Source: Enterobacteria phage 9g. Taken from it: 56,702 nt of DNA. Below the pieces are notes generated by a model. The model searched no databases. It had not been told where the DNA came from and saw only the letters and a list, made by a program, of their open reading frames with translations. The stretch lies in sequence record NC_024146.1; one strand, written 5' to 3'. The translations under genes and the position numbers were made by a program. Shown here one piece after another: positions 29,895 to 32,750 of this stretch (within the stretch, counting starts at the first letter, position 1; every line of letters begins with the position of its first letter).

Positions 29895-30248
29895 ATGAGC
29901 TTGCAACGTTTTGACAATGCAGAACTCGCGTGTGAATTTGCAAAGCGCAAGTTCGCAAAAACAGGTACGCCGCGATGCGTACACGCGGCTATTGGGCAAA
30001 ATGGGGCAAAGTATTGGTACGTCGGTACAGTAGCTCAGATCAAGCGAAGATTCGCGACTACGCCCGAAATGCGCCGGCTTGGGTCCCCTACACTTATGCG
30101 AAACAGGCAGTTGGATAAAGAGGAAATTTATCAATTTCTTAGGAATTACACTGGTAAGGAGAATAGATTTCAGGTTGCAGCGAAAGAGTTTAATATCGGT
30201 CTTTCCACTGCTTATAAAATTTATCACATGTATGGGCGTTTAATATGA
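29895..30248 (+). CDS. Putative DNA-binding protein (C-terminal HTH-like)
   Basis: 117 aa, GGAG upstream; C-terminal FQVAAKEFNIGLSTAYKIY is HTH-like. Confidence 0.5.
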   Translation: MSLQRFDNAELACEFAKRKFAKTGTPRCVHAAIGQNGAKYWYVGTVAQIKRRFATTPEMRRLGSPTLMRNRQLDKEEIYQFLRNYTGKENRFQVAAKEFNIGLSTAYKIYHMYGRLI

Positions 30249-30460
30249 CTGCAATTGCTTATCGTAATGGTATACTGGCTGTAGATCGTCAGGTTACATG
30301 GGGTAATATTGCAACAACTACAGATAAAGTTCATACTGTCAATATTCCAGGAATTGGGCTTTGTCTTGTCGCAATGTCTGGTAAACTACGTCCTGTAACT
30401 GATATTGTGGATCATCTAAAACTACGGTTCATGGACGTAAAGAACCTTTCTCGGACTTAA
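30245..30460 (+). CDS. Hypothetical protein
   Basis: 71 aa, ATG overlaps the upstream stop (ATGA). Confidence 0.45.
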   Translation: MTAIAYRNGILAVDRQVTWGNIATTTDKVHTVNIPGIGLCLVAMSGKLRPVTDIVDHLKLRFMDVKNLSRT

Positions 30461-30486
30461 ATCCGGATTCCCGTTATGGTATTGCA

Positions 30487-30738
30487 GTGACGCAGGATCT
30501 TGTCGTATATCCTATCTACGGGGATGGTAAATTAGGTCTACCGGACACTAACGAATTTATTGCGGAAGGTAGCGCGTTTGAGTTCTTGATGGGTGCAATG
30601 GCTGGAGGTTGCACCGCCGAAGAGGCTGTACGACTGGCGTGCGTATATTGCGACAGTTGTGGTCAAGGGGTTAAATTCTATGACGTAGCCTACACTCTTA
30701 AAGTGGCGCAGTGTAAAATCGAGGAGAAACCATTTTGA
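30487..30738 (+). CDS. Hypothetical Cys-rich protein
   Basis: 83 aa from a GTG start with no clear SD; contains CVYCDSCGQ. Confidence 0.35.
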   Translation: MTQDLVVYPIYGDGKLGLPDTNEFIAEGSAFEFLMGAMAGGCTAEEAVRLACVYCDSCGQGVKFYDVAYTLKVAQCKIEEKPF

Positions 30739-30926: not shown

Positions 30927-31150
30927 GCGATCCTACAAATACACAATTAGCCGCTGCAAGAGTGTATATGCGCGGAGCTGCCGCTGAGATTGATGCTTTG
31001 CCACAATTTGAAAAGCATGTACAGCAACTTGAACATAAATTTAAGGCTCTTAAAGATCTAGGGGATACGAAAGGTGCTATAGCCTTTCTTCTTGCTATCC
31101 AATACTTGTCTATGGAGGTTGGTGACAAAGTATGTTCCTTAGAAGAATAA
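30923..31150 (+). CDS. Hypothetical protein
   Basis: 75 aa from a GTG start with GGAGA upstream. Confidence 0.4.
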   Translation: MSDPTNTQLAAARVYMRGAAAEIDALPQFEKHVQQLEHKFKALKDLGDTKGAIAFLLAIQYLSMEVGDKVCSLEE

Positions 31151-31632
31151 TTGGTATTATTGCACCTTGGATACTACTTGTCATAATTGTTATTCTAGCC
31201 TACTGGGCTTATGACAATGCCATACAATCAGCTAGAAAGGAGGGTTTCGATGCCGGTGTGTCGTACCAAAAAGAAACTCAGAAAGCGGTTGATTTCGAGG
31301 AGGAGAAACGAAGAGCACATGAGAAAGACACTATCGAACGTCAGTACAGATCTCGTATTGAATCTTTGCTTGCCGATCTTAATAATTATCGCGCTACTAA
31401 TGACAGGTTGCACAACGAAATCGCAACCGTCCGTAAGTACCTCGGTGACGCTACCGGCCCTCAGCCCGACAGCAAGACAACCGCCCAGATCGCCCGTGTG
31501 CTCACCGAACTGTATTCAGAAAGCGTCACAGAATACGGACAAGTGGCAGAAGAGGCTGAAAAGTATCGTCTTGCCGGCGAGCAGTGCGAACTACAGTACG
31601 ATGCAATGCGAAATCCGCATAAAGAACGATGA
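31132..31632 (+). CDS. i-spanin (Rz-like)
   Basis: 166 aa. N-terminal TM helix IIGIIAPWILLVIIVILAYWAY followed by a charged coiled-coil periplasmic domain; lies upstream of endolysin and holin candidates. Confidence 0.65.
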   Translation: MFLRRIIGIIAPWILLVIIVILAYWAYDNAIQSARKEGFDAGVSYQKETQKAVDFEEEKRRAHEKDTIERQYRSRIESLLADLNNYRATNDRLHNEIATVRKYLGDATGPQPDSKTTAQIARVLTELYSESVTEYGQVAEEAEKYRLAGEQCELQYDAMRNPHKER

Positions 31633-31663
31633 TAAACTGCAAAGTCCTTGCCGGATTGCGTAA
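31319..31663 (+). CDS. o-spanin (Rz1-like lipoprotein), overlapping the i-spanin in the +1 frame
   Basis: Internal ATG at 31319 gives MRKTLSNVSTDLVLNLCLPILIIIALLMTGC... with a signal peptide, lipobox-like LMTGC, and a Pro-rich mature region with Cys; extends 31 nt past the i-spanin stop. Confidence 0.55.
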   Translation: MRKTLSNVSTDLVLNLCLPILIIIALLMTGCTTKSQPSVSTSVTLPALSPTARQPPRSPVCSPNCIQKASQNTDKWQKRLKSIVLPASSANYSTMQCEIRIKNDDKLQSPCRIA

Positions 31664-31754
31664 CTAAACGTTCAATCTTAATCGCACATAATTGATTGTG
31701 TGAGTGTGATAATTCCACTATGCTCTATTCGGTTTAACTGAATGGAGCTTTTTT

Positions 31755-32189
31755 ATGACTGTGCAACCACGAGGCATCCGGAATAATAATCCTGGAAATA
31801 TTCGTTGGGGTGATAACTGGAAAGGTCTTGTTCCAGAAGACAAACGAACTGACCGTTCTTTCTGTCAATTTATCGATGTAAAATACGGCATACGCGCGAT
31901 CGCGCGTATTCTACTAAACTACCGGAACCGCGAAGGGATGAAGCGCGTCGGAAATAAAGGGATTGACACTGTACGGGAGATTATTTCGCGCTGGGCTCCA
32001 CCGATTGAAAATAACACTGAAGCCTATATTCAATCCGTGTCTAAGGCTTGTGGTGTTGGTGCAGAACAGCCGATTTCAGTCACCGATGATAAAATCATGC
32101 TTGCGATCGTGAAAGCGATCATTAAACATGAGAACGGTGTGCAACCTTATTCTGATGAAGTTTTGCTCGCGGGTATCCATATGGCATAG
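31755..32189 (+). CDS. Putative endolysin (assigned by position in the lysis cassette)
   Basis: 144 aa, ATG at 31755 with GGAG upstream; lies between the spanins and the holin. Catalytic family not recognised by eye (contains GIRNNNPGNIR). Confidence 0.4.
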   Translation: MTVQPRGIRNNNPGNIRWGDNWKGLVPEDKRTDRSFCQFIDVKYGIRAIARILLNYRNREGMKRVGNKGIDTVREIISRWAPPIENNTEAYIQSVSKACGVGAEQPISVTDDKIMLAIVKAIIKHENGVQPYSDEVLLAGIHMA

Positions 32190-32202
32190 TAAGAGGTTAT
32201 AA

Positions 32203-32511
32203 GTGTCGCCGAATTGGGATTGGAATATAGTTTTTATTCTCACTGCCATTGCGATGGTAGGGGGTTCCCTTGGCTACGCTGCAAGAACCCATGATGCTAA
32301 AGAAAGGTTCAGACTTAGTGTCTTCATTCAAGAGGGTACTTTTTCTGCATTCTTTGGTTTCTTGATAGGTGTAATTAACGTGGAACATGGGGTCCCACTG
32401 GGGCTCAGTGGGGCGTTCATAGGTGTGTTATCTTGGTCAGGTTCAAGAACCATGCTGAAGTTTCTACGGAAAAAGACGGAAGTATGTGACCGAGAAAAGG
32501 AAAGAGGTTGA
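32203..32511 (+). CDS. Holin-like membrane protein
   Basis: 102 aa from GTG after AAGAGG. Three hydrophobic segments (IVFILTAIAMVGGSLGYAA; FSAFFGFLIGVI; LGLSGAFIGVLSW) and a charged C-terminal tail. Confidence 0.55.
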   Translation: MSPNWDWNIVFILTAIAMVGGSLGYAARTHDAKERFRLSVFIQEGTFSAFFGFLIGVINVEHGVPLGLSGAFIGVLSWSGSRTMLKFLRKKTEVCDREKERG

Positions 32512-32513
32512 TT

Positions 32514-32750
32514 ATGCGTCACTTTATCAACGATCTTCTTATATTGTGTAAGAAACCGCGATTGCTTTTCATCTATACGATGATTGGACTTGCACAAATT
32601 GGAGTCAGTGCTATCGCCATTGATCAGATGCACAAGAAACACAGGGCAAACCTGCGACCTTCAAAACCACCTGCTTATGTGGTCAACAAGGTTGAACAAA
32701 TCAAACAAGATATCCGGGAGATAACGTACATTCCTAAAGTTGAAATGTAG
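32514..32750 (+). CDS. Small membrane protein (possible holin partner/antiholin)
   Basis: ATG at 32514 (AAAGAGG upstream); one TM segment FIYTMIGLAQIGVSAIAI. Confidence 0.4.
   Translation: MRHFINDLLILCKKPRLLFIYTMIGLAQIGVSAIAIDQMHKKHRANLRPSKPPAYVVNKVEQIKQDIREITYIPKVEM

Follow-up and report, generated by a model that had tools for sequence, protein, structure and literature searches.

The lambda Rz/Rz1 pair, which is embedded, and the P2 LysB/LysC pair, which is overlapped, follow one logic: a type II protein of the inner membrane, helical in its periplasmic domain, is combined with a small, proline-rich lipoprotein of the outer membrane encoded in its +1 frame. In the overlapped class as defined by Kongari et al. 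2018 (PMC6139136), the o-spanin start lies inside the i-spanin gene and its end lies past the i-spanin stop. The sequence of Enterobacteria phage 9g (NC_024146.1; 56,702 nucleotides, hereafter the window) carries genes of this layout, and positions 31132-31663 very probably encode the two-component Rz/Rz1-type spanin, in overlapped arrangement, of this coliphage of the genus Nonagvirus. The pair is already known: exactly these two proteins are catalogued in SpaninDB, where Table S1 of Kongari et al. 2018 (PMC6139136) has the row '9g, NC_024146.1, Complete, ovl'. The original 9g paper recognised a single lysis-related gene and no Rz1, and suggested an unusual lysis mechanism. SpaninDB, the structure of the Enc34 endolysin and the BASEL annotations together supply all the parts and resolve that puzzle. 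We found no experiments on the 9g spanins in Kongari et al. 2018 (PMC6139136) or in the original 9g paper.

The SpaninDB row holds the i-spanin sequence, a Shine-Dalgarno string (gtctatGGAGGttggtgacaaagt), the signal peptide, the lipobox LMTG and an 84-aa mature o-spanin (PMC6139136), and in the window the proteins, the Shine-Dalgarno string, the lipobox, the 30-aa signal and the 84-aa mature part are all identical to that entry. The one departure concerns kinship, as the o-spanin family of 9g is listed there as 'Singleton', whereas homologues were found here. Two Nonagvirus members of the BASEL collection, Bas19 ChristophMerian and Bas20 FritzHoffmann, carry the same two coding sequences (CDSs), annotated as i-spanin and o-spanin with equivalent boundaries; the BASEL authors used SpaninDB for spanin annotation. 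These two phages share the 9g gene order, including an annotated endolysin and holin, and differ from 9g by a few substitutions. The region is 93.5-95.1% identical in nucleotides, the o-spanins are 91-92% identical (tblastn) and the i-spanin of FritzHoffmann is 93% identical to that of 9g. The o-spanin CDS is still omitted from most other Nonagvirus GenBank records, an instance of the gene-caller bias described by Kongari et al. (PMC6139136). The pair completes the 9g lysis cassette; it matters little beyond correct annotation, for which it is a useful reminder.

A preliminary description of the locus, made from its letters alone, had proposed this overlapped pair, with an Rz-like i-spanin that has an N-terminal transmembrane helix and, in another frame, an open reading frame (ORF) with a signal peptide, an LMTGC lipobox and a proline-rich mature region with cysteines that runs 31 nt beyond the i-spanin stop. 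Each of these features lies where it had been placed, and the proposal agrees with the SpaninDB class and with the evidence set out below. Relative to the prototypes, the mature o-spanin is long (84 aa, where lambda Rz1 has about 40) and the gene order is spanins-endolysin-holin rather than holin-endolysin-spanins. P2 LysB/LysC shares the overlapped layout, yet the 9g i-spanin has no significant similarity to the P2 LysB model: the NCBIfam search of the lysis proteins gave nothing above cut-off, the i-spanin reaching 15.7 bits against TIGR03495 (cut-off 92.75). We therefore rejected a LysB/LysC equivalog identity for the 9g pair.

The gene at 31132-31632 can be read with confidence as encoding an inner-membrane protein in which one N-terminal transmembrane helix is followed by a periplasmic domain of helical structure. 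The strongest hydrophobic segment of its product, IIGIIAPWILLVIIVILAY at aa 6-24, has a mean Kyte-Doolittle hydropathy of 2.91 in a 19-residue window; it is preceded by RR, and the remainder of the protein is charged. This profile points to a single N-terminal transmembrane domain, and a type II topology would follow the prototypes. Profile searches place the protein in recognised i-spanin families, with matches to PHROG 312 'Rz-like spanin' (E=1.5e-41) and to Pfam DUF2514 (45.2 bits, gathering cut-off 26). An AlphaFold2 model built with 11 homologues as input is of moderate confidence (mean predicted local distance difference test score, pLDDT, 72). It has one helix at aa 3-107, comprising the transmembrane segment and a long periplasmic helix, and a second at aa 115-160, joined by a linker at about aa 107-115 with pLDDT below 50. 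The modelled periplasmic part thus would consist of helix, flexible linker (about aa 108-114) and helix, as has been described for i-spanins of the Rz type. This domain carries one invariant cysteine, C152, conserved in the alignment with distant homologues.

The +1 frame of this gene has an open stretch, 31211-31663, that holds ...LVLNLCLPILIIIALLMTGC; we conclude that, most likely from the ATG at 31319, this frame encodes a predicted lipoprotein precursor. The lipoprotein signal was judged by rule, from hydropathy and the lipobox pattern. A basic N-terminus, MRK..., leads into the hydrophobic region LVLNLCLPILIIIALLM (Kyte-Doolittle 2.57) and the lipobox LMTG|C, so that the basic N-region, hydrophobic core and lipobox cysteine of a signal peptidase II substrate all appear to be present. 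The sequence MRKTLSNVSTDLVLNLCLPILIIIALLMTGC precedes a serine- and proline-rich region of 84 residues, which with the lipobox cysteine counts 13 Ser, 9 Pro and 5 Cys. In E. coli, lipoproteins that lack Asp at position +2 are sorted by the Lol system to the outer membrane. The mature 9g protein would begin C-T-T-K, and because its +2 residue is Thr rather than Asp, sorting to the outer membrane is predicted. The product belongs by profile to a recognised o-spanin family, PHROG 11621 'Rz-like spanin' (E=2.1e-21), and its tblastn matches land on annotated o-spanins or Rz1 proteins of other phages; a Pfam search of the o-spanin gave no significant match. In its AlphaFold2 model the chain is mostly coil of low pLDDT, except for the signal helix and a helix at aa 63-83, consistent with a small, proline-rich and largely unstructured periplasmic domain that is longer than in most o-spanins. 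Four periplasmic cysteines, two of them invariant among homologues, together with C152 of the i-spanin, could serve intermolecular disulfides. A u-spanin was considered and rejected, the protein being a lipoprotein without a C-terminal transmembrane domain and a separate i-spanin being present.

Counted from the ATG at 31319, the o-spanin gene has 345 nt, of which 314 lie within the i-spanin gene. The last nucleotide of the i-spanin stop is 31632 and that of the o-spanin stop 31663, and it is this 31-nt tail beyond the i-spanin stop that makes the pair overlapped rather than embedded under the definition given above. One might suppose instead that the +1 frame is open by accident, as a non-coding by-product of i-spanin codon choice, and that the outer membrane is disrupted in another way. 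Alternative-frame ORFs can be long by chance: when synonymous codons were drawn 20,000 times for the i-spanin, by window codon usage and by within-gene permutation, the maximum was 170-176 codons. The o-spanin is also unannotated in most GenBank records of relatives, and no Rz1 was found in the original 9g paper. Against this, open +1 runs that reached the observed 154 codons or more occurred in 0.25-0.5% of the recodings (p ~0.003-0.005) and a hydrophobic stretch with a lipobox in 0.1-0.35%, so that neither the open frame nor the lipoprotein signal turns up in more than 0.5% of them. The missing annotations reflect the known bias of gene callers against embedded genes (Kongari et al., PMC6139136).

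Conservation is a stronger argument than these recoding statistics for a coding +1 frame. Nonagvirus relatives are 92.5-96% identical in nucleotides across the lysis region, and in 11 of 12 of them nothing interrupts the +1 frame between the equivalent of ATG 31250 and the same stop, with the lipobox unchanged. All seven distant phages compared, namely PAS61 and Tyrion (both ε15-like Uetakevirus), Vi II-E1, 6947, KLB22, EKq1 and K9PH25C2 (Klebsiella Queuovirinae), have in the +1 frame an ORF that includes a lipobox and the core LSPLARQPxRSxxCSPxC, and both frames were recovered independently by tblastn. Identity to the distant phages is 35-41% in the o-frame against 22-34% in the i-frame. The lipobox cysteine is invariant in 10/10 aligned o-spanin homologues, as are both cysteines of the CxxxC motif, and the invariant columns of the alignment are P46, L48, A52, P55, C61, C65, Q77 and L80. 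The frame, the lipobox cysteine and CxxxC are thus kept where the i-spanins have diverged, with the o-frame the better conserved of the two, and the product matches an o-spanin family profile. In view of this conservation, the idea of an accidental frame is effectively refuted by the sequence comparisons, and we give it next to no credence.

Where translation of the o-spanin begins is a separate matter. The open frame back to 31211 is peculiar to the 9g genome, since in its relatives a stop follows closely after that position; in Bas19 and Bas20 the stop lies upstream of the equivalent of ATG 31250. Translation of the o-spanin could start at ATG 31250, alone or together with 31319, giving a 137-aa precursor with a highly basic N-terminal extension of 23 residues and the same mature lipoprotein. 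The best Shine-Dalgarno sequence of the region (AAGGAGG; duplex free energy, dG, -12.1; 5-nt gap) belongs to ATG 31250, and only 2% of ATGs in the window reach -9, whereas the GGAGG of ATG 31319 is 14 nt upstream, beyond the optimal distance. In every Nonagvirus relative the +1 frame is open from the equivalent of ATG 31250 onward. This ATG and its Shine-Dalgarno sequence are kept in all Nonagvirus relatives and in Klebsiella phage K9PH25C2, where an ATG and an SD-like GGAGG are found despite different i-spanin residues at that place (TGG versus KEG). Yet Shine-Dalgarno strength alone does not fix the start. Both elements at 31250 fall inside codons of the conserved i-spanin motif (E/G)GFDAG and may be by-products of it; in more distant homologues the corresponding upstream Met lacks a Shine-Dalgarno sequence, and in several it is the proximal Met that has one. 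An N-region of 34 aa with a net charge of +9 would be atypical of Sec/signal peptidase II substrates, and both SpaninDB and the BASEL annotations chose 31319. We therefore retain ATG 31319 as the most likely start, with ATG 31250 as its alternative, and regard initiation at 31250, by itself or alongside 31319, as unlikely.

The wide spacing of the Shine-Dalgarno sequence at 31319 also weighs against the assignment of an overlapped Rz/Rz1-type pair as a whole, as do several other points. Met at position -3 of the lipobox is uncommon, though SpaninDB lists LMTG, and the signal peptide is longish (30 aa) with an Asp at position 11. In favour of the pair, overlap substitutions that alter both proteins are depleted among 12 close relatives (10/38 observed, against 55% of possible changes), but this test is weak and no more than suggestive, as it draws on 38 changes in related genomes. 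Lipidation, outer-membrane localisation, complex formation and the lysis role of the pair are all predicted from what is established for lipoproteins and spanins.

By the general rules for lipoproteins, Sec would export the o-spanin precursor, Cys31 would receive the lipid, signal peptidase II would remove the signal peptide, and the Lol system would take the lipoprotein to the outer membrane. On the Rz/Rz1 paradigm summarised in PMC6139136, the i- and o-spanin would bind through their periplasmic ends, and the resulting complexes would span the periplasm through the peptidoglycan mesh, which is expected to hold them in check until lysis. The LydA-type holin encoded at 32203 may then permeabilise the inner membrane and so release the soluble Enc34-type endolysin encoded at 31755, which would degrade the peptidoglycan. 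The freed spanin complexes could collapse, fuse the inner and outer membranes, and complete lysis.

The homologues also bear on how the arrangement arose. Pairs from ε15, Vi II-E1, Tyrion and PAS61, which SpaninDB lists as 'emb', are homologous to the 9g pair in both frames. Their i-spanins have in common with that of 9g the C-terminal motif AGxxCExQY, and their o-spanins share with it the lipobox cysteine, the LSPLARQPxRSxxCSPxC core, the +1 frame and a similar relative start. The o-spanin stops of the embedded homologues lie 23-47 nt before the i-spanin stop, whereas that of 9g lies 31 nt past it; among the homologues, only EKq1 (+10 nt) and the Nonagvirus group (+31 nt) depart from the embedded end position. 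In 9g the stop of the embedded homologues is absent, Ser-Leu of the i-frame being replaced by Ala-Met (TCA TTA to GCA ATG); in PAS61, which is embedded, the o-frame stop falls at the i-frame Ser-Leu. Loss of this stop adds about 20 residues with two extra cysteines to the 9g o-spanin, a tail that might allow a further disulfide or a contact not made before with the C-terminus of the i-spanin. Families that mix embedded with overlapped or separated members do not occur, according to Kongari et al. 2018 (PMC6139136), and that statement fails for the 9g o-spanin family at the level of profile homology, a minor refinement. The comparison suggests a small evolutionary point, that a single stop-codon loss can turn an embedded spanin pair into an overlapped one, which bears on the evolution of overlapping genes. 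We raise tentatively, and with rather more doubt than conviction, the further idea that the 9g/Nonagvirus pair is a natural intermediate between the embedded and overlapped classes, or that it uses dual initiation at 31250 and 31319.

In one Escherichia phage sequence the overlapping frames have themselves been joined. The spanin locus of vB_EcoS_HdK1 (HdK1; MK373794.1, 6460-6990; L005:533-1063) has a 1-nt deletion at the equivalent of about 31375 in the window, by which i-spanin residues 1-81 are joined to the o-spanin frame immediately ahead of ...ILIIIALLMTGC. The outcome is one chimeric ORF of 176 aa, with neither an intact i-spanin nor an intact o-spanin; the deletion reflects an error of sequencing or else marks a natural spanin mutant.

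Table 1. Features of the 9g lysis region, with positions counted from the first nucleotide of the window.
Feature	Positions	Strand	Basis
Shine-Dalgarno sequence GGAGG of the i-spanin	31114..31118	+	anti-Shine-Dalgarno duplex dG -10.0; same string in the SpaninDB 9g row
i-spanin gene, 166 aa, Rz-like	31132..31632	+	ORF; PHROG 312; DUF2514; 100% identical to the SpaninDB 9g i-spanin
Predicted transmembrane helix at the i-spanin N-terminus, aa 6-24	31147..31203	+	hydropathy; AlphaFold2 helix
Alternative upstream o-spanin start: AAGGAGG (31237-31243) and ATG 31250	31237..31252	+	strongest Shine-Dalgarno sequence of the region
o-spanin gene, 114-aa precursor, +1 frame of the i-spanin	31319..31663	+	ORF; PHROG 11621; Bas19/Bas20 annotation; 100% identical to the SpaninDB 9g o-spanin
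Predicted lipoprotein signal peptide, 30 aa: MRKTLSNVSTD followed by LVLNLCLPILIIIALLMTG	31319..31408	+	hydropathy maximum 2.57 at aa 12-30; AlphaFold2 helix aa 8-28
Lipobox L-M-T-G-C, with predicted lipid-modified Cys codon at 31409-31411	31397..31411	+	regular-expression match; SpaninDB 'LMTG'
Mature o-spanin, 84 aa, Thr at +2, core LSPxARQPxRSxxCSPxC	31409..31660	+	composition, Cys positions, alignment
o-spanin-only tail past the i-spanin stop, 31 nt including stop	31633..31663	+	coordinates
Stem-loop and U-run directly 5' of the endolysin start	31722..31748	+	terminator-like, 12 pairs; 3' arm contains the endolysin Shine-Dalgarno sequence (GGAG)
Endolysin, Enc34/PHA02564 type, predicted soluble, no transmembrane domain	31755..32189	+	PDB 7Q47; PHROG 873
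Holin, 102 aa, LydA-like, GTG start	32203..32511	+	PHROG 785; Pfam PF16083; Shine-Dalgarno dG -6.5
Small protein with a single transmembrane domain, overlapping the holin stop	32508..32750	+	ORF; PHROG 16688 (unknown function), E=9e-55

The neighbouring genes agree with a lysis cassette, as the preliminary description had also held in placing a putative endolysin at 31755 and a holin at 32203, both of which are borne out by the searches. The endolysin gene lies 92 nt downstream of the spanin pair and the holin gene comes next, so that the overlapping spanin genes appear to sit in one cassette with endolysin and holin. The order from 31132 to 32750 is i/o-spanin, endolysin, holin and small transmembrane protein, with terminase genes just downstream. 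This order reverses the common holin-endolysin-spanin order and is matched by K9PH25C2, which has in addition an annotated 76-aa ORF (L018:1711-1941) between spanin and endolysin, with no counterpart in the window.

The endolysin is related to the catalytic domain of Hafnia phage Enc34's endolysin (family PHA02564), whose structure is PDB 7Q47 and whose muralytic activity has been demonstrated (PMC8943055). The match to 7Q47 has E=6.7e-31 and that to PHROG 873 E=6e-63; a Pfam search of ORF 31755-32189 gave no match, and the identification comes from the PHROGs and PDB sequence searches. W80, Y91 and E126 align with Trp79, Tyr95 and Glu131 of Enc34, so the homologous protein keeps the catalytic Glu together with the conserved Trp and Tyr. 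The 144-aa product has no hydrophobic window and lacks the C-terminal membrane domain of Enc34, and it is therefore predicted to be the soluble catalytic domain alone, dependent on a holin. The product at 32203 has the marks of a LydA-type holin: it matches PF16083 (LydA; 32.3 bits, cut-off 28.4) and PHROG 785 (E=2e-26), and it appears to be a small membrane protein, with one strong hydrophobic segment plus weaker ones and a charged C-terminus, KFLRKKTEVCDREKERG. The product of 32508-32750, 78-80 aa long, has one hydrophobic segment (aa 17-36), and the protein is conserved in all relatives; from its position it is possibly an antiholin or a lysis regulator.

The spacer between the spanin and endolysin genes (31664-31754, 91 nt) folds unusually well (z = -3.4). 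Of the 11 relatives retrieved, 10 share its stem-loop at 31722-31748 without change, and SP8 has a single G-to-A change in the 5' arm. This hairpin could be a terminator between transcription units or a translational control element. A promoter scan gave 7 sites, with 8.1 expected in shuffled sequence, and hence no excess.

Upstream of the spanin genes, an HslV-family peptidase-like gene (30245-30738 in the window), which is a single 164-aa CDS in JenK1, is split in 9g by a 1-nt deletion near 30417 into ORFs 30245-30460 and 30487-30738. The split gene is either a frameshift pseudogene or the product of a sequencing error.

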